Shown here in pieces: positions 22,246 to 30,330 of a stretch of DNA of 64,000 nt. Origin of the DNA: Parcubacteria bacterium GBS-2 (GTDB lineage Bacteria; Patescibacteriota; Minisyncoccia; Minisyncoccales; GBS-2); the NCBI GenBank assembly GCA_001443025.1, contig LEKP01000001.1:161889-225888 (forward strand). Direction: 5' to 3'. The translations under genes were made by a program, and so were the position numbers. Within the stretch, counting starts at the first letter, position 1. Each line of letters starts with the position of its first letter. The notes below the pieces were generated by a model, which was not told where the DNA came from, made no database searches, and worked only from the letters and a program-made list of their open reading frames with translations.

Positions 22246-23148
22246 TCACTGAAATAGAAAGTATCCGATAATTAAGACTAAAAGAAAAAGCAAAATCAAA
22301 ATTGATTTTGGATTTTTTAAGAAAACTAAAACTTCTTTCATCAAAGGTAAAAAAACTGCAGAAAAAGAAAATGGCTTTAATTTTTTGGTGTCGGTTTTTA
22401 AAAATGGAGAAAAAATTTCTTTCAGGGAAAATTCTTTGAAAGTCTTTGCAGAAATAATTTCTTTTTTCTGTTTCGAAATTTCTTTTGAAAGAGAAACAAA
22501 AAAGGCAATACCCTTAACTTTGGAAAGTTTTTCTCTTTTTCCGTCTAATATTCTTTTGAAATCTTTATCTGTAAAACACTCTAGTTCTCTCAACTGCTGA
22601 ATTAAATTTTCATTTTGAAAAAATTCGAAAACTTCTTTCATCAAAACTAAAATTAGATCACCTTCAATTAAATTACCGCTTACTACGCTACCAAAAATCT
22701 TTAATGGATAAGGTTCAATATCCTGAAGTCTCAGTCTTTTATCAATGTCTATTATTTTTCTTCCTCTTATTAGCAGAATTTTCATTTCTCCAACTTTCGT
22801 GAAATTCAATTCAAAGTTTTTTAAGTTTAAAACTGCAAATGATAAGTTTCCTAACCATGAAACATCTCCGCTTTTTGCAATTCTTCCTAAAAATTCGTTT
22901 GTCTCTTTTAAGGTTTCCTTTAAGGCCTTTTCAGGTTTTGAAAGCGTTTTTTTATAAAATACCTCTTTGATAAATTCCGCAATTTTTTCTAAAAAATTGT
23001 GACTTTTTGGTAAAGCATTTTTTAAGGCCCCAATCAAATAAAGAGAACCTAACCTCTTTTCGTAAATGTTTTGCGGTTCAAAACAAAAACTATCAAAAAT
23101 TAAATCCTCCTTTGCTTTTGGATTGAAATAAAATTGGAAGATCCTCAT
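22246..23148 (-). CDS. Hypothetical C-terminally membrane-anchored protein (weak PP2C/SpoIIE-like fold suspicion only)
   Basis: 300 aa with one C-terminal TM helix. No catalytic motifs were recognised. Confidence 0.35.
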   Translation of the reverse strand: MRIFQFYFNPKAKEDLIFDSFCFEPQNIYEKRLGSLYLIGALKNALPKSHNFLEKIAEFIKEVFYKKTLSKPEKALKETLKETNEFLGRIAKSGDVSWLGNLSFAVLNLKNFELNFTKVGEMKILLIRGRKIIDIDKRLRLQDIEPYPLKIFGSVVSGNLIEGDLILVLMKEVFEFFQNENLIQQLRELECFTDKDFKRILDGKREKLSKVKGIAFFVSLSKEISKQKKEIISAKTFKEFSLKEIFSPFLKTDTKKLKPFSFSAVFLPLMKEVLVFLKNPKSILILLFLLVLIIGYFLFQ

Positions 23149-23153
23149 TTATC

Positions 23154-23182
23154 TTGACTTTAAATTAAAATTTTTGTAAAAT
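23154..23182 (+). promoter_or_regulatory. Promoter of the CAP-sortase operon (leaderless geometry)
   Basis: TTGACT, 17 nt, TAAAAT (23177-23182), then 6 nt to ATG 23189. Confidence 0.55.
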
Positions 23183-23188
23183 AAAATA

Positions 23189-24199
23189 ATGAATATTTTA
23201 CGCTTTTTTAAAAAAACTTTCTTTCCTTGCGTCGAAAACAATTACTTCCCTTTATTTTTAAAAGAAAAATTTTTGAATCTTTATTTAATTTTATTACTAA
23301 TTTTAAAAATTTTCACCATACCTTTAATTTTTTCGATTTCAAAAACAGTATTTTTCGCTGACATTCACAAGCCAACTTTAATTAATTTTCTGAATTTCGA
23401 AAGAAAAATAAGAGGATTACCTCCTCTCTCCGAAAACCCACTTTTGAACCAATCTGCCTATTTAAAAGCAAAAGATATCTTAGAAAAGGATTATTTTTCT
23501 CATTTTAGCCCAGAGGGCATTTCTCCTTGGTATTGGTTTAAATTAACAGGTTATGAATATCAATTTGCGGGGGAAAATTTAGCGATTGGATTTTTAGACT
23601 CAAAAGAAGTCCATGAAGCCTGGATGTCTTCTCCTTCACATCGACAAAACATTTTAAATCCAAATTATAAAGAAATTGGAATTGCAGTTTTAAAAGGAGA
23701 ATTCAACGGAAGCGAAGTCTACGTTGTTGTCCAACATTTCGGAAGCCCAAAAGTCGTTTTAGCAGAAGATAAAGAAAAATTCACTCAAAACCAAACTTCT
23801 ATACCAATTTCCACTCCAACTGAAACAAACATCAAAATTCAACCTTCTACGTCTACAGAGGGTACCACCTCTATTGGAAACACTTCAACTTTTGCTTTAA
23901 CTGAGAAAGAACAAATTTCACCCTCCCAGAAAATTACTTTCAATTTGGTAAAATTTTTAGCCCTTAGATACACCTCAATATTGAACGTCATTATTTATTT
24001 TACTCTAGCTATTTTAATTTTCTCTTTGAGTTTAACAATTTTTTGCGACATTTTCATCTATCGAAAATTCGTAATCGATTACAAAGAATTAATCCCAAGA
24101 TGGGTAAGTTTTTGTTTAATTCTTATCCTTTTTCTCTACCTCGATCAATCAAAACTTATTCAAATCATTCCTCACAAACTCATAATTCATGGATTCTAA
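23189..24199 (+). CDS. CAP/SCP (PR-1, YkwD-like) domain membrane protein
   Basis: YLKAKDILEKDYFSHFSPEG...GENLAIGF...EVHEAWMSSPSHRQNILNPNYKEIGIAV, followed by a Ser/Thr-rich linker and C-terminal TM helices. Confidence 0.75.
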   Translation: MNILRFFKKTFFPCVENNYFPLFLKEKFLNLYLILLLILKIFTIPLIFSISKTVFFADIHKPTLINFLNFERKIRGLPPLSENPLLNQSAYLKAKDILEKDYFSHFSPEGISPWYWFKLTGYEYQFAGENLAIGFLDSKEVHEAWMSSPSHRQNILNPNYKEIGIAVLKGEFNGSEVYVVVQHFGSPKVVLAEDKEKFTQNQTSIPISTPTETNIKIQPSTSTEGTTSIGNTSTFALTEKEQISPSQKITFNLVKFLALRYTSILNVIIYFTLAILIFSLSLTIFCDIFIYRKFVIDYKELIPRWVSFCLILILFLYLDQSKLIQIIPHKLIIHGF

Positions 24200-24800
24200 G
24201 AAGATTCTCCTAAAATATTTTTTAATTTTCTTTTTAATTTCTTTTTTAGTTTTCAATTGGCAAAAAATTTTCTGGATTTTCTATCCAAACTATTTTTTTA
24301 GGGTAATATCTTTTTATTTTTTTGAGAAAGAACAACTAAAAGAAAACCAAAAAAACTTGAAGCAAAAAATTGAAGAAATTTATGAAAAAGAAGACTCAAT
24401 TGAAATTCCAAAAATTAAAATTTCTGCACCGCTTATCATTGTGGAAAAAGAAGAAGAGGTTAAAAAAGCATTGGATAGGGGAGTGGTGCTCTGGCCAAAT
24501 TCAGCATTGCCTGGCCAAAAAGGACAAACAATAATTTTAGGACATTCTGCCCCTCCCAATTGGCCAAAAATAAAATATGACTGGGTATTTTCAAATTTGA
24601 ATTTGTTAGAAAAAGGAGATGAAATAATTATCTATTTCAAAAAAAAGAAGCATGTCTACCTTGTTAAAGATAAAATCTTTTTACAAAGAGGACAAGAACT
24701 TCCAGAAACAGATCCCGAAAAAACAGTTTTATTTTTAATCTCTTGTTGGCCGCCAGGGAAGGATTTTAGGAGAATTGCAGTTGAAGCAGTAAAAGAGTAA
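24189..24800 (+). CDS. Sortase-family transpeptidase
   Basis: N-terminal TM helix, His motif IILGHS, Cys motif VLFLISCWPPG (TLxTC-like) and Arg RRIAVEA. It overlaps the CAP gene by 11 nt. Confidence 0.75.
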   Translation: MDSKKILLKYFLIFFLISFLVFNWQKIFWIFYPNYFFRVISFYFFEKEQLKENQKNLKQKIEEIYEKEDSIEIPKIKISAPLIIVEKEEEVKKALDRGVVLWPNSALPGQKGQTIILGHSAPPNWPKIKYDWVFSNLNLLEKGDEIIIYFKKKKHVYLVKDKIFLQRGQELPETDPEKTVLFLISCWPPGKDFRRIAVEAVKE

Positions 24801-24801
24801 C

Positions 24802-24835
24802 AATTTCAGTTTTTCACAATTGTGAAATAGTGAAA
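24802..24835. repeat. 34-nt motif containing the 16-bp perfect palindrome TTTCACAATTGTGAAA (copy 1)
   Basis: Matches 30604-30637 at 30 of 34 positions. The inner 24-mer matches at 23 of 24. Confidence 0.8.
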
Positions 24836-24909
24836 TTCTTGAATTTTATATTTTTATCTTTATCTCAATATCTCAAGGATTTTTGAACGTTCGGGAGATT
24901 AGGGAATTC

Positions 24910-24938
24910 TTGACAAATTTTTTGGCATATTATAAAAT
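24910..24938 (+). promoter_or_regulatory. Promoter of the collagen-like gene
   Basis: TTGACA (24910-24915), 17 nt, TAAAAT (24933-24938). This is followed by SD GGAGGTGA (24945-24952) and TTG 24958. Confidence 0.6.
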
Positions 24939-24957
24939 TAAGACGGAGGTGACGAGG

Positions 24958-25821
24958 TTGAAAGAAATGGAGGGTTGGAGAGAAATTTTAAAGGGTAAAA
25001 CCAAGGAAGAAGCAAGGAACTTCCTGATGGAAGAGCGAAAGAGATTTCGACTATCAAATGAAGACATAGAAAATATTCTGAGAAGTCTCGAAGAACAACC
25101 TGCAACGCAGGAAAAAGAAGACATAGAAAATATTCTGAGAAGTCCCGAGGAACAACCTGTCGAATTTCAGGGACCTCCTGGAGAAAGAGGCCCAGAAGGA
25201 TCCCAAGGTCCTCCAGGTTCCCAAGGACCCCAAGGCCCGCCTGGACCTGGAGGAAGGGTTCCTCGGTGGATAGGAGCAATTTGCATTACAGCGGTTCTCA
25301 TTGCAATTATTGCGTTAGCCGTTGCTTTGGTGTACCACCCTGTATCCACTGATTTTCAACAATCCTTGGAGGTTCAGAATTCGCGACTTCAGGGACTACA
25401 GAGACTCATTGAAACTCAAGAGAAAATTATTGCTGATTTACAAACACAGATTGCCCAGCTAAAAAACAACCTTACATTATTACAACAGAAACTTGAGAAA
25501 CCTAATGAGGATCATGTACAAGAGGAAATACGAAAATTGCAGGAGCAGCCTAGCAAATTACAAGAAGAGTTGAATAGAATCGTAAACACTGATTTCGAAA
25601 GCGTAAACAGGTACATCAGGAAAACTCCGCTAGGATGGGACCCTAGGCAAATGGCCCAGGACCTCGAGGAGAAGTTCTGGGTCGAGACGAAGATAGTGAC
25701 AAGAGAGAATGTGCAGTATCTCTTCCTGCGTTTCAAGTGCCACTGCACAATAACACAGGAATGGTGGTGGGTGACCTATAAAGGGTTACTTCCTACCAGC
25801 GAAGCACCAGTTCAACCATAG
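24958..25821 (+). CDS. Collagen-like (GXY)9 / TM / coiled-coil protein
   Basis: GPPGERGPEGSQGPPGSQGPQGPPGPGG (about 25171-25254), TM helix WIGAICITAVLIAIIALAVALVY, then heptad-rich LQGLQRLIETQEKIIADLQTQIAQLKNNLTLLQQKLEK. The start was moved from the track TTG 24883 to 24958 because the promoter and SD lie inside the track ORF. Confidence 0.6.
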   Translation: MKEMEGWREILKGKTKEEARNFLMEERKRFRLSNEDIENILRSLEEQPATQEKEDIENILRSPEEQPVEFQGPPGERGPEGSQGPPGSQGPQGPPGPGGRVPRWIGAICITAVLIAIIALAVALVYHPVSTDFQQSLEVQNSRLQGLQRLIETQEKIIADLQTQIAQLKNNLTLLQQKLEKPNEDHVQEEIRKLQEQPSKLQEELNRIVNTDFESVNRYIRKTPLGWDPRQMAQDLEEKFWVETKIVTRENVQYLFLRFKCHCTITQEWWWVTYKGLLPTSEAPVQP

Positions 25822-25920
25822 GTTCTTTAAACAGCACCTTCAAGAAAAAAAATTCCCCCCATCTTTTTTCTCTTTTTTTTTCTAGCCCTTGAGGGAACTT
25901 GAGGGTTGGAAGAAAAAGAG

Positions 25921-25949
25921 TTGACAAACAGATTTAAAAGTGTTAAAAT
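25921..25949 (+). promoter_or_regulatory. Promoter of the Cys-rich repeat gene (leaderless geometry)
   Basis: TTGACA, 17 nt, TAAAAT (25944-25949), then 8 nt to ATG 25958. Confidence 0.6.
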
Positions 25950-25957
25950 TTTTTATC

Positions 25958-26698
25958 ATGAAGAATAATATAAAAGTTTTGATAATTCTTCTGATTTCCA
26001 TCTTTTGGGGACTACTTTTGATTTTCCATTTTCAAAAAACAGTTTCAGCTGCTACTTGCGGAAACGGAGTTTGCGAATCAGGAGAAACTTGTTCAAATTG
26101 CAGTATAGATTGTGGAAGTTGTGGTCCTACTTGTGGAAATGGGATTTGTGAATCAGGAGAAACTTGTAGTAATTGTTCTATAGATTGTGGTTCTTGCGGA
26201 CCAACTTGCGGAAACGGAGTTTGCGAATCAGGAGAAACTTGTTCAAATTGCAGTATAGATTGTGGAAGTTGTGGTCCTACTTGTGGAAATGGGATTTGTG
26301 AATCAGGAGAAGTAAACATATGCTGCAGTGATTGTCCTCCAACATGTGGAAACGGAGTTTGCGAATCAAATTGCGGAGAAAGTGCTTCAAATTGCTGTTT
26401 AGATTGTTATGTAGAACATTATCAAAAGAAATGCTATGACAACGATGTTTATTGGTACGATTGTAATGGTCAAAGAAAAGATAAATACCAAGAGTGTGGA
26501 ACTTCTGGTTGGACAGATGAATATCGATGTGCGGGAAATTGGGTTCAAAGAAAGTATATAAACAGAGGTTGTTCAAATGCACAATGTTATGCAACGGAAG
26601 AATGGAAGGATTATCAGTATTGCTCAAATTACTGCCTAAATGGAAAATGTGTTTTTCCTCCAACAGTGATAACTAAAGGAGCGGTGGTGACATATTAA
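25958..26698 (+). CDS. Secreted Cys-rich repeat protein (TCGNGxCESGETCSNCSIDCGSCGP x4-5) ending in VITKGAVVTY
   Basis: Signal/TM peptide MKNNIKVLIILLISIFWGLLLIF, 25-aa Cys repeats, a Cys/aromatic-rich domain and the conserved C-terminal decapeptide. Confidence 0.7.
   Translation: MKNNIKVLIILLISIFWGLLLIFHFQKTVSAATCGNGVCESGETCSNCSIDCGSCGPTCGNGICESGETCSNCSIDCGSCGPTCGNGVCESGETCSNCSIDCGSCGPTCGNGICESGEVNICCSDCPPTCGNGVCESNCGESASNCCLDCYVEHYQKKCYDNDVYWYDCNGQRKDKYQECGTSGWTDEYRCAGNWVQRKYINRGCSNAQCYATEEWKDYQYCSNYCLNGKCVFPPTVITKGAVVTY
26054..26311 (+). repeat. 150-bp-period tandem duplication inside the Cys-rich gene
   Basis: 26054-26161 is identical to 26204-26311 (108 nt, checked by hand). The units are 75-bp A and B modules. 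Confidence 0.85.
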
Positions 26699-26749
26699 AG
26701 GTCGAAGAAGTAATAAACAAAAAGCAATAAAACAACGAGCAATAAAAAT

Positions 26750-27415
26750 ATGAAAATTAGAAATTTAGCCTTATTAACCCTGGTGGCTACTGTTTTAGCA
26801 ATGACAACGCCAATTCAAAATGTTTTGGCAGTTAGCGCTACCTTATACGGAGAGGTGACTGATGATGGAGGAGACCCAAATCTATATGTGTGGTTCCAGT
26901 ACGGAAAGACGACTCTTTATGGTTATGAGACACCAAAACAAACCAAATATGGAACGGGAGAGTTTTCAGCAACTATTACTGGTTTGGAAATGTGTACTAC
27001 CTATCATTATCGAGCAGTTGTTAAACATGTAAATTACGACGATACTAAGTACGGAGAAGACAAATCATTTACTACTGAATGTCCAGTATCGGTTGATCTC
27101 AAGGCTAATGGTTATGATGGCCCGATTACCGTATCTTATAAAAACAGAACGATCACTTTTTCTTGGACTTCGCAGTACGCCGATACTTGCACTGCTGAAA
27201 CAATTAATAAACCTTCAAACAGTAGCGTTAATTGGTCAGGAACGAAATCCACATCTGGAAATGAATCAGTGACTTTAGATAAAGCTGGTTCCTATACTTT
27301 CAAGTTGACTTGTAAAAATAACACAAGCAATAACACAAAATACGATACTGTTCAAGTAACAGTTGAACAACCGACTTTAGGTGTGATCACAAAGGGCGCG
27401 GTTGTTACTTACTGA
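26750..27415 (+). CDS. Secreted two-domain (FN3-like 'YG.T' + Ig-like) protein ending in VITKGAVVTY
   Basis: Signal peptide, then LYGEVTDDGGDPNLYVWFQYGKTTLYGYETP...CTTYHYRAVV, a second beta domain and the C-terminal decapeptide. Confidence 0.65.
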   Translation: MKIRNLALLTLVATVLAMTTPIQNVLAVSATLYGEVTDDGGDPNLYVWFQYGKTTLYGYETPKQTKYGTGEFSATITGLEMCTTYHYRAVVKHVNYDDTKYGEDKSFTTECPVSVDLKANGYDGPITVSYKNRTITFSWTSQYADTCTAETINKPSNSSVNWSGTKSTSGNESVTLDKAGSYTFKLTCKNNTSNNTKYDTVQVTVEQPTLGVITKGAVVTY

Positions 27416-27447
27416 TTGAAAAAAAAGGGGGGCAATGTTACCTTCCC

Positions 27448-27476
27448 TTGACAATTTTTTTTATTTTTGATAAAAT
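27448..27476 (+). promoter_or_regulatory. Promoter (leaderless geometry)
   Basis: TTGACA, 17 nt, TAAAAT (27471-27476), then 8 nt to ATG 27485. Confidence 0.6.
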
Positions 27477-27484
27477 AAAAATAT

Positions 27485-28111
27485 ATGAAAACAAAAGCTA
27501 AAAAAATTATATTTTATTTAATAATGACTGCCTCAATGATTACTATTGGGGCAGGAGCGCTCGCACAAACTTGTCCTGAAAAAACAACTGTTAATGGCCC
27601 AACTAGCATTACTTTTGTTGGAGGAATTACTGATTTGGGAGGGGACACTCAGGCATATGTTTGGTTTGAATATGGAACTTCTTCTGGAAATTATACATTT
27701 AAAACGGAGAAAAAAATCGTAACTCAACTTGGAAAATATTGCATCACAGTTAATAATTTACAACCTTGCACAACCTATTACTATCGTGCTGCAATGGAAA
27801 ATAAAGCAGGTCCAAGTTATGGCGCAGAGTTGACGAAAACTACTCCTTGTACTGGACAAACTACTTCTTCTGGTCAGGTTTTAGGCATTGCTACTGCTCA
27901 ACCTACTGGATTAATAAAAACCATTTTCTCTGATTTTTTGCTTTTTCCCTTATTGATTGCTTCATTTTTACTTTTCGTTTTTAAATCTCACATTTTAAAA
28001 TGGGAAGAGTGGTTAGATGAGAGAAAGAAAGAGTATCAAAAATTCAAAAGCGAAAAACTTTTGAGGCTAAAAGTTTCCCAAATAAAGCTCAAGGAAAAGT
28101 TAAAAATTTAA
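27485..28111 (+). CDS. Surface protein: FN3-like domain + xPTG motif + TM + conserved KSHILKWEEWLD cytoplasmic tail
   Basis: Signal peptide, YVWFEYGTSSGNYTF...CTTYYYRAAM, QVLGIATAQPTGL, a hydrophobic helix and a basic helical tail. Confidence 0.65.
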   Translation: MKTKAKKIIFYLIMTASMITIGAGALAQTCPEKTTVNGPTSITFVGGITDLGGDTQAYVWFEYGTSSGNYTFKTEKKIVTQLGKYCITVNNLQPCTTYYYRAAMENKAGPSYGAELTKTTPCTGQTTSSGQVLGIATAQPTGLIKTIFSDFLLFPLLIASFLLFVFKSHILKWEEWLDERKKEYQKFKSEKLLRLKVSQIKLKEKLKI

Positions 28112-28114
28112 TTT

Positions 28115-29377
28115 ATGAAGTTTTCCAGTAAAAAATTATTCTTTGAAAATTTACTTGCGCTTTTAATTTTATTCAATTTTGCCTCTTTTTCTTTTGCAGC
28201 CAGCGCCATTTTATATGGAGAAGTCACCGACGATGGAGGAGACCCGTATCTTTATGTTTGGTTTCAATACGGAGAAACTACTGCTTATGGTTTTGAAACT
28301 CTCCGTCAGCCAAAATACGGTTTTGGAGAATTTACTGCTACTGTGTCTGGTTTAAAAGATTGTACTACTTACCATTATCGGGCAGTAGTCAAGCATCAAA
28401 ATTATGATGACACAAAATATGGAGAGGATAAAATTTTTACCACGCCTTGTCCCTCGATTACTTATCCTGCCCCAACGGTTGATTTGAAAGTGAATGGATA
28501 TGATGGTTCGGTAACTATTCCATATAATTCCTCTGCGATCTTATCTTGGACATCAAACAATGCCAATTATTGCGTAGCTTCCGGAGCTTGGTCTGGGGCA
28601 AAAGAAACTTCTGGCTCTGAATCAACCGGAAAATTAACATCAGGACCTAGAACTTATACTTTAACTTGCTATGGTCTGGGAGGTTCTGCCTCAGATAGCG
28701 TAACAATTTATCTTCAGCAAGTTTTGGGAGCTGTTGCACCCACTCTTCAAAAAAAAGTGAGAAATCTTTCCGATGGTCAAACTCAATTTTTTGATTCAGT
28801 TTATGCTGACCCCTCAGAAGTTTTAGAATTTCAAATTGTAATCCATGCTGGATCTGGAGTTCAGAATTTGATCGTGAAAGACATATTACCTGAAAAAATT
28901 ACTTTAAGACCAAATTCTTTAAAAATCGACGGGATTTCAACATCTGGAGACATTGTTTCTGGCATTTCTTTGGGAAATTTGTCTCCAAATCAAACAAAAA
29001 CAATTACTTTTTTGGCTGATATTGCCCCAGCAAACCAATTTTCTTTTGGTCAAACAAATTTAACAAACACTGCAACGATTTATTGGAATGGCAATTCACT
29101 TTCAGATACAACCACGATAATTGTTAAAAAAACAGCAGTAGCAGGAGTAGCTACTGGAATCTCAACTGGATTTGACCATTCCTTCTTTAAATATCTTTTT
29201 CCTACATCGATTTTTGGTCTAGTCTTAGTTTGGCTTTTCAGATCTCACATTATAAAATGGGAAGAGTGGTTAGATGGAATGAAAGAAAAATATCAGAAAT
29301 TTAGAGCGGAAAAACTTTTAAAAATGAAAATTGTTAAAGCGAGAACAGAGAAATTTTTGAAGGAAATATTATTTTGA
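28115..29377 (+). CDS. Surface protein: FN3-like + Ig-like + DUF11-like repeat + xSTG motif + TM + KWEEWLD tail
   Basis: The N-terminal roughly 110 aa look about 80% identical by eye to the 26750 protein. DUF11-like segment LEFQIVIHAGSGVQNLIVKDILP...TKTITFLADIA. C-terminal anchor GVATGISTGF-TM-RSHIIKWEEWLD. Confidence 0.65.
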   Translation: MKFSSKKLFFENLLALLILFNFASFSFAASAILYGEVTDDGGDPYLYVWFQYGETTAYGFETLRQPKYGFGEFTATVSGLKDCTTYHYRAVVKHQNYDDTKYGEDKIFTTPCPSITYPAPTVDLKVNGYDGSVTIPYNSSAILSWTSNNANYCVASGAWSGAKETSGSESTGKLTSGPRTYTLTCYGLGGSASDSVTIYLQQVLGAVAPTLQKKVRNLSDGQTQFFDSVYADPSEVLEFQIVIHAGSGVQNLIVKDILPEKITLRPNSLKIDGISTSGDIVSGISLGNLSPNQTKTITFLADIAPANQFSFGQTNLTNTATIYWNGNSLSDTTTIIVKKTAVAGVATGISTGFDHSFFKYLFPTSIFGLVLVWLFRSHIIKWEEWLDGMKEKYQKFRAEKLLKMKIVKARTEKFLKEILF

Positions 29378-29456: not shown

Positions 29457-29529
29457 GGGCGCGTAGCTCAGCTGGCAGAGCGCTTCACTCACATTGAAGA
29501 GGTCGGAGGTTCAAGTCCTCCCGCGCCCA
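29457..29529 (+). tRNA. tRNA-Val(CAC)
   Basis: Acceptor GGGCGCG/CGCGCCC, D arm GCTC-AGCTGGCA-GAGC, anticodon arm CTTCA-CTCACAT-TGAAG, T arm GGAGG-TTCAAGT-CCTCC, discriminator A. Confidence 0.9.
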
Positions 29530-29559
29530 CATTTTTTATTCTGTGATAAACTAAAATTG

Positions 29560-30330
29560 ATGGATTTGGTTTTTTTAAAAATTGGTGGCTCATTAATTAC
29601 TAAAAGAAAGACCTATACTCTAAATCTAAAAAAAATCAGAGAAATTTCTAGAGAAATTCTCAGGCTAAGAAAAAAATACAAGTTTAAACTTTTAATTGGT
29701 AACGGAGCAGGATCTTTTGCTCATGTTTCGGCAAAAAAATTTAAAACTAAAGAAGGTTACATAAATAAAAAGAGTAAAATTGGTCATTGCATCGTTCAAG
29801 ACGATGCTTCAACTTTAAATAGAATTTTAGTTAAAGAATTAATAAGAGCGGGAGAAAGGGCAATTTCTGTTCAACCTTCGGCTTTTATTTTTTGCTCAAA
29901 AAAGAAGATTAAATCACTTTTCTTAGATCCAATTAAAAACTATTTAAAAAACGATTTAGTTCCAGTTGTCTTTGGCGATGTCATTTCAGATGAAAAATTA
30001 GGATGCACAATTCTATCCACAGAAGAAATTTTTAAACTTTTGGCAAAATTTTTAAAACCAAAAAAGATAATTTTAATGAGTAATGTTGAAGGGGTATATG
30101 ATTCAGGAGGGAAAGTGATTCCAGAGATAAACAGAGAAAATTTTTCAAAAATCCAAAAATTTTTAAAGGGCGCAGATAAAATCGATGTTACAGGAGGAAT
30201 GGCTCAAAAAGTGAAAGAGGCAATGGAAATAGCAAAAGAAGGAATTGAAGTTTTTATAATCGGTGGCAAAAAAAGGAATTTAGAAAAATGTCTAAAGGGT
30301 GAGAAAATCGGAACCAAAGTTTTCTTTTAA
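29560..30330 (+). CDS. Isopentenyl phosphate kinase (amino-acid-kinase fold, archaeal type)
   Basis: FLKIGGSLITKRK, GNGAGSFAH, VPVVFGDVISD, ILSTEEI and DVTGGM parallel the characterised archaeal IPK motifs. The track start at 29494 overlaps tRNA-Val, so ATG 29560 is used. Confidence 0.75.
   Translation: MDLVFLKIGGSLITKRKTYTLNLKKIREISREILRLRKKYKFKLLIGNGAGSFAHVSAKKFKTKEGYINKKSKIGHCIVQDDASTLNRILVKELIRAGERAISVQPSAFIFCSKKKIKSLFLDPIKNYLKNDLVPVVFGDVISDEKLGCTILSTEEIFKLLAKFLKPKKIILMSNVEGVYDSGGKVIPEINRENFSKIQKFLKGADKIDVTGGMAQKVKEAMEIAKEGIEVFIIGGKKRNLEKCLKGEKIGTKVFF

Follow-up and report, generated by a model that had tools for sequence, protein, structure and literature searches.

Why should two adjacent genes, whose products are otherwise unlike, end in the same ten amino acids? 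The question is raised by a locus in Parcubacteria bacterium GBS-2 (contig LEKP01000001.1, positions 161,889 to 225,888). We will refer to this whole stretch of 64,000 nucleotides as the window, and coordinates below are positions within it. In the window, the open reading frame (ORF) 25940/25958..26698, which encodes a Cys-rich protein, and the ORF 26750..27415, which encodes a protein with an FN3-like and a PKD-like domain, both end in VITKGAVVTY followed by a stop codon. Our preferred answer, which we consider reasonably likely to be right, is that an FN3 domain has been split naturally, and that the C-terminal tag is a donor strand that assembles a tip protein, a shaft protein, and a sortase-anchored base without covalent bonds. 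We will term the Cys-rich protein the tip and the FN3-like protein the shaft, after these proposed roles.

The decapeptide lies at 26666-26695 in the tip (stop codon TAA) and at 27383-27412 in the shaft (stop codon TGA). The proposed donor strand of the tip (strand A/A' of an FN3-like domain) is PPTVITKGAVVTY plus TAA (26657..26698, forward strand). The tag of the shaft is QPTLGVITKGAVVTY plus TGA (27368..27415, forward strand), which forms the C-terminus of this 221-amino-acid protein after the last strand of a complete Ig/PKD-like domain. The 30-nucleotide tag DNAs differ at 8 positions, and every difference is synonymous and at a third codon position. This bears out the preliminary description of the locus, which had reported a shared decapeptide with third-position differences in 8 of 10 codons and with unlike stop codons. 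The same description took the two proteins to be otherwise unrelated, and BLASTP finds no similarity between them apart from the tag. The 60 nucleotides upstream of the two tags are identical at 13 of 60 positions, which is the background level, so there has been no recent duplication or gene conversion. As neither protein has any residues beyond the tag (the stop follows it directly), neither has a transmembrane segment or an xTG motif, and the reported lack of a transmembrane anchor or LPXTG motif holds for both. A six-frame fuzzy search (up to 4 mismatches) found no third copy of the tag in the 64 kb.

The tag is not unique to this locus. With the 221-amino-acid shaft as the query, we found 116 clusters of homologs, mostly of 210-230 amino acids and all annotated as hypothetical. 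Nearly all of the shaft homologs, down to ~45% identity, end in V[IV]TK[GP][AV][VI][VI]TY, and close homologs of the Cys-rich tip end in C-x-x-P-P-x-VITKG[AV]V[VI]TY. Overall, the pattern P-x-V-[IV]-T-K-[GP]-[AV]-[VI]-[VI]-T-Y is carried by over 100 homolog clusters and by 44 distinct metagenomic loci. (An exact-pattern scan of GTDB species genomes gave 7 loci, as the pattern was too strict; a metagenome scan with protein alignment was far more productive.) The search beyond the window that had been suggested earlier thus finds the tag in many other proteins and loci. Across the 85 loci that we fetched, the pattern is never internal and always at the exact C-terminus. Among 46 distinct tag DNAs, the differences fall 6189 times at the third codon position, 1966 times at the first, and 1434 times at the second. 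The excess at the third position and the invariant terminal location imply purifying selection on a peptide that is exactly C-terminal. The earlier view that selection acts on the peptide, and that the identity is not due to the DNA or to gene conversion, is therefore supported both by the synonymous pattern and by conservation among homologs. The residues themselves are not all fixed: Lys is present in ~85% of tags, and L, I, S, or R takes its place across whole subclades. Finally, the tips of relatives have a PKD-like domain before the tag, while the tip in the window has lost this domain and kept the tag, which indicates that the tag is portable and selected for in its own right. We also considered that TGA might be read as an amino acid under an alternative genetic code, but the stops after the 46 tag DNAs are TAA (41), TAG (4), and TGA (1), so that 45 of 46 end in TAA or TAG, and the ORFs in the window are intact under table 11.

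If the tag is a strand, then which domain is missing one? In an AlphaFold2 model of the shaft (mean predicted local distance difference test score, or pLDDT, of 91), the N-terminal domain, which we will call domain 1, has a pLDDT of ~97. In the model it spans residues 28-108 and has six strands beginning at strand B, and DSSP assigns no A strand. This acceptor domain (26831..27085, forward strand; residues 28-112; strands B, C, C', E, F, and G) starts with 'VSATLYGEV'. Domain 2 (residues 114-205) is a complete Ig-like sandwich, and the tail (residues 206-221) lies outside both domains. Domain 1 has weak Pfam hits to PF16656 (FN3-like or Pur_ac_phosph_N-like) and Foldseek matches to tandem FN3 structures. 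Foldseek comparison of the shaft model to PDB, along with profile and sequence searches against PDB chains, returned only generic tandem FN3 or Ig proteins (Ihog, Tie2, RbmA, and CfaE-CfaB), with low template-modeling scores.

The missing strand can be recognized in other proteins that carry the domain in intact form. A profile of the three copies of domain 1 in the window matches 26,052 proteins, and the best 150 of these 26,052 are giant tandem arrays, in which as many as 39 stretches of one protein match the profile. In 1,051 distinct internal copies, the residues before SATLNG have the consensus P(-15) P(-14, 75%) T V(-12) T T(-10, 86%) x A A(-7) T x [IV](-4) T x T. Judged from sequence, this preceding segment is strand A/A' of the domain. 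We built a position matrix from these 1,051 copies and used it to score the tags. The tip tail PPTVITKGAVVTY scores 14.0 bits, as compared to −1.8 ± 4.2 for shuffled versions, 0.04% of which reach its score. As further controls, 431 other C-termini average −10 bits with a maximum of 10.8, and 0.02% of 14,680 random 13-mers reach the score of the tip. Across 50 distinct tags, the mean is 10.6 bits. For 46 of these 50, the best alignment has one single-residue deletion and puts the last residue at position −2. On the other side of the junction, the −3/−1 rule places the signal-peptide cuts between VLA and VSATL in the shaft and between SFA and ASAIL in the 420-amino-acid protein encoded downstream (anchor-420, below). 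With cuts at these sites, the mature acceptors begin at position −1. Thus, by sequence, a tag plus the mature N-terminus of the next protein would rebuild the canonical junction, bar one deleted residue, with the split falling between strands A and B. The preliminary description had raised the possibility that the decapeptide is just the last strand of a shared globular domain. It does seem to be a strand of a globular domain, but the first one and not the last, with the remainder encoded at the N-terminus of other polypeptides.

Before the matrix, we scored chimeras with a hidden Markov model (HMM) of the canonical domain. The acceptor alone aligned only from position 27 of the model, while a chimera of the tip tail and mature anchor-420 aligned from position 11 (FPPTVITKGAV-VTYASAILYGEV). 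The chimera scored 107.4 with the tip tail and 101.5 with the shaft tail, as compared to 99.5 ± 1.8 with shuffled tails. Because T, V, and A abound in the canonical strand and the HMM is heavily down-weighted, this test has little power to discriminate, and the matrix replaced it as our test of the tags.

The distribution of tags and acceptors across genomes provides another line of evidence. In the 44 distinct tag loci there is a recurrent operon order: a CAP/YkwD protein, a sortase, a variable tip with a tag, a shaft of ~220 amino acids with a tag, and one or two anchored proteins. (The window has a G+C content of 32%, and the relatives are labelled Patescibacteria, Nomurabacteria, or Paceibacterota.) In all 38 of the tag loci that have downstream sequence, the next real gene encodes an N-terminal domain 1. 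Complete downstream proteins that were recognized by pattern usually pass a test for a transmembrane segment plus a basic tail (29 of 32), and the other 3 show a transmembrane stretch on inspection. Conversely, we collected 90 distinct proteins with an N-terminal domain 1. By automatic criteria, 36 of these end in a tag, 46 end in an anchor, and none have both. Inspection of the other 8 showed 5 with a transmembrane stretch near the C-terminus, 1 with a variant of the tag, 1 apparently truncated ORF, and 1 that we could not classify. The four proteins in the window follow the same division: the tip is a donor only, without an acceptor domain; the shaft combines acceptor and donor in one polypeptide; and the 208-amino-acid (anchor-208) and 420-amino-acid proteins are acceptors only.

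The same modules also exist in fused form. CAP-sortase loci that lack tag proteins encode a single sortase-anchored protein of 800-1270 amino acids, with a Cys-rich module first. The Cys-rich module from one of these loci (L080) is homologous to that of the tip in the window (1e-10). In another such protein (L063_4), residues 813-1200 are colinear with the entire 420-amino-acid anchor (3e-49), and its domain 1 comes with a contiguous A strand of its own (PDVETEYATNIDDD-RATLRG). A third protein (L053_11) also has its own A strand, and there is no tag partner within 14.6 kb. As the fused anchored proteins share the modules of the split operons, these modules occur both fused and split.

Some features are specific to the split form. 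The Lys of the tag falls at position −9, where 1.8% of canonical strands have a Lys, and an aromatic residue is found at position −2, where the tags have their terminal aromatic, in 5.5%. On the acceptor side, E+6, D+9, and D+13 are present in 88-95% of acceptors but in 9-15% of canonical copies. E+6 is relaxed to D or Q with 7 of the 13 L-type tags, which lack the Lys, as compared to 2 of ~110 K/R-type tags. Furthermore, the tags of the tip and shaft match better within a locus than between loci (7.37 versus 6.19 of 10 positions; 0 of 10,000 shuffles).

There are also unusual tags. Divergent versions occur on extra proteins (PRVITRPITW, PRVITKMITW, PPKVKTGKVETY, and PPEVRTGRVVTY; L015 2942-3652, L018 1476-2111, L009, and L010). 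'Half tags' (PPxVxT[KR]-COOH, such as ..PPTVVTR or ..PPGVRTR) occur on the products of the first gene of L020, L030, and L047, and are confined to loci in which the acceptors have kept CPxNTxVxG, a segment similar to strand A'. The divergent tags and half tags may encode pairing specificity.

This is the kind of domain that giant surface proteins carry in long tandem runs, and we propose that, in effect, a tandem-domain adhesin has been cut between strands A and B at every joint. The upstream polypeptide would keep strand A as its extreme C-terminus (P-P-T-V-I-T-K-G-A-V-V-T-Y-COOH), and the downstream polypeptide would start at strand B once its signal peptide is off (V/A-S-A-T/I-L-Y-G-E-V). 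We infer that signal-peptide cleavage occurs at this site and that, after export by Sec, the tag inserts in trans beside strand B of another protein's domain 1 and completes the beta-sandwich by non-covalent bonding. The Cys-rich protein, as a donor only, would be at the tip; the 221-amino-acid protein, with both acceptor and donor, would provide one or more shaft units, so that assembly would continue beyond 1:1 contacts into a polymer; and the 208- and 420-amino-acid proteins, with acceptors only, would form the base. The sortase would cleave the base proteins at [VAI][SP]TG and fix them to the wall of the cell envelope. In short, separately secreted surface proteins of this ultra-small bacterium probably join end to end into a sortase-anchored fiber. 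More tentatively, we suggest a fuller scheme that is possible but that we would not yet call probable: a hybrid surface fiber of Patescibacteria with chaperone-free split-FN3 joints that run from a donor at the tip to an acceptor at the base, with variable and interchangeable tips, and with the base alone fixed by CAP-sortase. Among the three roles that the preliminary description offered for the tag (a new sorting or secretion signal, a donor strand for fiber assembly, or a Lys nucleophile), the donor strand is the one that we favor, and the other two fare poorly, as discussed below.

Several observations weigh against this proposal. First, the signal-peptidase site is placed solely by the −3/−1 rule. 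Second, the tail of the shaft is a poor match: TLGVITKGAVVTY has no PP and reaches only 2.0 bits with the matrix, and in the HMM test the chimera with the shaft tail is only ~1 standard deviation above the shuffles. Third, the shaft tail has a pLDDT of ~91 (residues 206-221, model m1a9aba19cb2e) yet forms no beta ladder and no DSSP strand. (The AlphaFold2 model of the tip, from 9 sequences, has a mean pLDDT of 62, which is too low to interpret its tail.) Fourth, domain 1 is modeled at a pLDDT of ~97 on its own without the strand, so it might be stable without a donor. Fifth, acceptors of a large clade of KP type have kept CPxNTxVxG, a segment similar to strand A', although full-length tags are present on their partners, which leaves the register ambiguous. 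Sixth, no chaperone or other guard against premature self-assembly was identified, and there is no PapD-like protein among the eight proteins at 22246-29377 (Pfam). Finally, the within-locus matching of tags and the covariation of K and E are confounded by phylogeny and, in some loci (L006), by gene conversion.

One alternative is that pairing is only intramolecular: the tail of the shaft would complete its own domain 1, as in a circularly permuted FN3 domain, and the tag of the tip would make at most one 1:1 contact, with no fiber. Monomeric type V pilins do complement themselves before assembly, and the tail's high pLDDT in the model of the monomer could mean that it has a fixed position in cis, but DSSP finds no strand pairing for the tail. 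There is also a steric argument. In FN3 domains, strand A begins at one pole and the C-terminus lies at the other. The shaft has a linker of 7 residues after domain 2, and strand A would have to begin at the far pole of domain 1, so self-complementation is sterically unlikely, while a head-to-tail neighbor can be reached. Head-to-tail pairing would also reproduce the geometry of tandem arrays. Moreover, the tip has a tag but no acceptor, and the anchors have an acceptor but no tag, so these proteins would need to pair in trans. We consider a purely intramolecular role to be unlikely.

Alternatively, the tag could be a recognition signal for the CAP protein, for the sortase acting as a non-catalytic receptor, for a PDZ-like protease, or for a component of the cell wall, by which the proteins would be retained or processed; in that case its likeness to strand A would be merely historical. 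A strict free C-terminus with a terminal aromatic is typical of C-terminal peptide recognition, and CAP and sortase are tightly linked to the locus. The preliminary description had proposed testing for this co-occurrence, and sortase and CAP genes are indeed present in 17 of the 21 tag loci that have enough flanking sequence. However, CAP-sortase pairs are equally present in loci without tag proteins (L063, L067, L068, L072, and L080), so the pair does not depend on the tag. A recognition signal also leaves unexplained why the proteins encoded downstream of the tags start exactly at strand B and why the canonical domain is reconstituted almost seamlessly. A new sorting or secretion signal has no support either: the tag proteins have no transmembrane segment or basic tail, and no Pfam or NCBIfam model of a known sorting signal matches the tag. 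In particular, the tag (10-13 residues and then a stop) fits none of LPXTG, PEP-CTERM, GlyGly-CTERM, PGF-CTERM, or the T9SS C-terminal domain, which consist either of a motif with a transmembrane helix and a basic cluster after it or of a beta-sandwich domain of ~80 amino acids. We regard recognition of the tag by another machine, too, as improbable.

A third possibility is that docking is followed by formation of an isopeptide bond between the Lys of the tag and an Asp or Asn of the acidic E-x-x-D-D-G-G-D loop of the acceptor, as in a natural split domain of the SpyTag or SnoopTag kind. In its favor, the Lys at −9 is specific to the tag (1.8% in canonical strands), and the acceptors have gained invariant acidic residues. 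There is also a weak match (E = 0.046, far below the cut-off) to a model of a streptococcal pilin isopeptide domain. But whole subclades replace the Lys with L, I, or S and keep the rest of the system, and Pfam and NCBIfam scans detect no isopeptide-domain family (CnaB or similar). Also, we know of no FN3 domains that form isopeptide bonds. A covalent joint of this kind seems quite unlikely.

Fourth, the tag Lys could resolve an acyl-enzyme that the sortase forms on the xTG paralogs, as in the polymerization of Gram-positive pili, which is the Lys-nucleophile role of the preliminary description. The sortase is adjacent, the paralogs do carry [VAI][SP]TG, and Lys is found in most tags. Nevertheless, the sorting signal is present only on the would-be proximal anchors, and its ligation to a tag would leave the product unanchored. 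Several subclades do without the Lys, a YPKN-type pilin motif is absent, and the sortase scores 45.6 bits against the class C cut-off of 160. We view sortase-mediated ligation as very unlikely.

Last, the tag could be a functionless relic of a truncated tandem-domain protein, as it is homologous to an inter-domain strand, but this is scarcely credible given that it is conserved in over 100 clusters with mostly synonymous change and an invariant, exactly C-terminal position, that it has acquired its own Lys and Tyr, and that it was kept in the tip of the window despite the loss of the preceding PKD domain. We also rejected the beta-signal of outer-membrane proteins, which has a terminal aromatic: there is no beta-barrel here and, to our knowledge, bacteria of the Candidate Phyla Radiation (CPR) have no outer membrane.

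The genes of the locus can now be described from tip to base, with all of those that have strand assignments on the forward strand. The tip (25958..26698) has a signal or anchor helix, 4-5 repeats of 25 amino acids (CGNGxCE..NC..DC), a Cys-rich domain of ~95 amino acids, and the tag. Its gene probably starts at ATG 25958, as the alternative start, GTG 25940, falls inside a promoter-like site. The repeats arise from a 75-bp tandem repeat with 3.5 copies (26052-26311) that encodes the 25-amino-acid module TCGNG[VI]CESGETCSNCSIDCGSCGP. A protein from other samples (P0267, 196 amino acids) is 99% identical to the tip and has two fewer repeats, and the family ranges from 1 to 5 repeats. As near-identical tips differ in repeat number, the length of the tip varies between strains. 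In a JGI assembly of the same strain (L086 2917-2949), a 'gene' of 10 amino acids is called immediately before the shaft, where the other assemblies have the tag; this is presumably an artefact of assembly, with the upstream Cys-rich repeats collapsed or broken. The shaft (26750..27415) comprises a signal peptide (residues 1-27, with a cut predicted between VLA and VS), the FN3-like domain 1 that lacks strand A, the PKD/Ig-like domain 2, and the tag.

Both anchors have a candidate sorting region. Anchor-208 (27485..28111) has an N-terminal domain 1 of the 'CPEKTTVNG' type, as a putative acceptor, followed by AQPTG (27896-27910), a transmembrane segment (27911-27982), and a long basic tail. Anchor-420 (28115..29377) has a domain 1 that lacks strand A (28199-28453, mature ASAILYGEV), a PKD-like domain, a DUF11-like domain, the sorting motif GISTG (29156-29170), a transmembrane segment (29171-29239), and a basic tail. 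The consensus from 44 anchors in the loci (for which the corresponding regions of the window are 27896-28111 and 29156-29377) is G-A-A-T-x-[VAI]-[SP]-T-G-L-T-N-N-I-F-x-D-S-F-L-L, then the transmembrane segment, and then an amphipathic basic tail of ~40-50 amino acids (..W.E..KK.Y...K..K.L.LK..). No NCBIfam model matches this region, and the tail of classical LPXTG signals is much shorter. The genes for the tip, shaft, anchor-208, and anchor-420 (25940-29377) are all in one reading frame, which is probably a coincidence.

Upstream, the sortase that had been reported next to the tag genes is real (24189..24800; Pfam Sortase, 9.3e-18). Its sequences ILGHS, ISCWPPG, and RRIAV correspond to the motifs that, in known sortases, contain the catalytic His, Cys, and Arg. 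It is below the cut-off of every NCBIfam class, and class C gives the best score (45.6 bits). Going by sequence, the sortase presumably processes the [VAI][SP]TG anchor proteins. Directly upstream of the sortase, and always paired with it, is a membrane protein with a CAP/YkwD domain and C-terminal transmembrane segments (23189..24199; the two genes overlap by 11 nucleotides in the window). CAP-sortase looks like a conserved two-gene module.

Three near-identical promoter-like sites, each with 11 of 12 matches, are found at 24910-24938, 25921-25949, and 27448-27476. The second (25921..25949; TTGACA, 17 nucleotides, and TAAAAT, with TG), which lies before the genes for the tip and shaft, and its twin (27448-27476), which precedes both anchor genes, are matches to the consensus only. 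These two sites end ~9 nucleotides before ATG 25958 and ATG 27485. The sequence suggests leaderless or near-leaderless transcripts and separate units for a coiled-coil protein, for the tip plus shaft, and for the anchors. If so, then the starts as listed, GTG 25940 and TTG 24883, are probably incorrect. The coiled-coil protein is encoded between the sortase and the tip (ORF 24883-25821) and has a short collagen-like G-P-P-G stretch, a transmembrane segment, a long coiled coil, and a Trp-rich C-terminal domain (..EWWWVTYKG..). It is kept in the closest relative (L008) and is replaced elsewhere by a small Cys-containing protein of ~160 amino acids. Beyond the anchors, a tRNA-Val (CAC) at 29457-29530 overlaps the listed TTG start of ORF 29494-30330 (amino-acid-kinase family). 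The true start of this ORF is probably downstream, and the gene calls from other samples are of 256 amino acids.

CPR bacteria (Patescibacteria) spend their lives attached to other cells, a lifestyle in which surface appendages play a central part. Besides type IV pili, the only CPR pili to have been characterized are Pam (a 2026 preprint). If our proposal is correct, then the fiber would be a second donor-strand system in the CPR, with a different geometry, and the only case known to us, or encountered in our literature searches, of donor-strand joints paired with a sortase-anchored base. The genomic signature (a C-terminal PxV[IV]TK[GP]AVVTY and then a gene whose mature product starts with 'SATLxGE') could annotate hundreds of proteins that are now labelled hypothetical. 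The system would also be an example of gene fission within a domain in which strand complementation restores function, and would provide a natural and portable connector between proteins, in which a tag of 13 residues docks onto an FN3 domain of ~85 residues; this could be useful for protein engineering.

How does the proposed fiber compare to known systems? Pfam and NCBIfam scans found no known family of pilins or sorting signals on the tag proteins, and our literature searches for this tag or arrangement found no description of it; the only related CPR system that they turned up is in the Pam preprint. As in the sortase-assembled pili of Gram-positive bacteria, a sortase is clustered with genes for a tip, a shaft, and a base, and the base has an LPXTG-like motif, a transmembrane segment, and a basic tail. 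In those pili, every pilin has a sorting signal, and the joints are covalent, through the Lys of a pilin motif. In contrast, the tip and shaft in the window have no sorting signal, which is found only on the 208- and 420-amino-acid proteins, and the sortase matches the general Pfam domain but not class C, the class that polymerizes pilins.

Chaperone-usher pili (Pap or Fim) resemble our proposal in that a strand from a neighbor completes an incomplete Ig-like fold and in that there is an order of adhesin, rod, and terminator. These pili have an N-terminal donor extension, lack the C-terminal G strand, and rely on a periplasmic chaperone and an outer-membrane usher. The extension in the window is C-terminal, and no chaperone-usher components were detected in the locus (Pfam and NCBIfam).

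Other donor-strand filaments, among them the archaeal bundling pili (PMC9245690), are found on cells that, like these, have no outer membrane. TasA of B. subtilis and the archaeal bundling pili reportedly assemble by themselves after Sec export without a chaperone, and these two and cannulae are said to be essentially homopolymers with N-terminal donor strands and other folds. None of the three has a sortase-anchored base or a split FN3 domain. For cannulae, self-assembly after Sec export without a chaperone is described (bioRxiv 10.1101/2024.12.30.630787).

The tag also resembles those of SpyTag type, in which a terminal beta-strand peptide complements a domain that lacks this strand and is portable among unrelated cargo. 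SpyTag/SpyCatcher and SnoopTag are man-made, derive from CnaB domains, and depend on an isopeptide bond. The split in the window, by contrast, is natural and FN3-like, and nothing indicates covalent chemistry.

Donor-strand pili are already known from the CPR in the form of the Pam pili (Troman et al., bioRxiv 10.64898/2026.03.03.709456). Like the proposed fiber, Pam is specific to the CPR, with Sec-exported Ig-like subunits, donor-strand exchange, and no trans-envelope machine, and its base protein contains FnIII-like domains in tandem and ends in a transmembrane helix (bioRxiv 10.64898/2026.03.03.709456). Going by its description, Pam is nonetheless distinct. Its donor is an inter-domain linker strand, its acceptor is a truncated Ig-like C-terminal domain, its pilins are of 38-55 kDa, its PapD/FimC-like chaperones PamC/D are anchored by transmembrane segments, and the pam operon is not reported to include a sortase (same preprint, in which the word occurs a single time, in the Introduction). 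In the window, the donor is the extreme C-terminus and the acceptor is an N-terminal FN3-like domain without strand A.

The system closest in logic is the type V pili of Bacteroidia (FimA/Mfa1), because a C-terminal donor replaces the first strand of the acceptor (PMC13655056, PMC4789730, PMC5789003), as we propose here from sequence logic. Type V donor strands are C-terminal, and their exact C-terminus is essential (PMC13655056). In type V pili, as in our proposal, the tip, stalk, and anchor are defined by the donor or acceptor that they carry, and assembly is non-covalent and has no usher. The type V pilins differ in host phylum and in being outer-membrane lipoproteins with transthyretin-like domains, whose groove is opened when gingipain cleaves an existing strand. 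The proposed fiber would instead have FN3-like domains whose groove is present once the signal peptide is removed, a sortase signal on the base, and no outer membrane. The signal peptide of the shaft (predicted cut between VLA and VS) has no lipobox Cys, and Pfam and NCBIfam scans hit no FimA/Mfa family. The polarity is also reversed: in type V pili the donors are on the base side and the tip pilins have no donor, whereas here the tip would have only a donor and the base only an acceptor. Still, three of the features that define donor-strand filaments are seen in the window: a strand is missing from domain 1, a terminal extension matches the missing strand, and each end subunit has a donor or an acceptor but not both. 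For a fourth, insertion into the neighboring subunit in trans, the donor-only and acceptor-only proteins and the topological argument give indirect support. On balance, we lean towards seeing this fiber as a variant of the donor-strand filaments whose scheme of assembly we did not find described in the literature.

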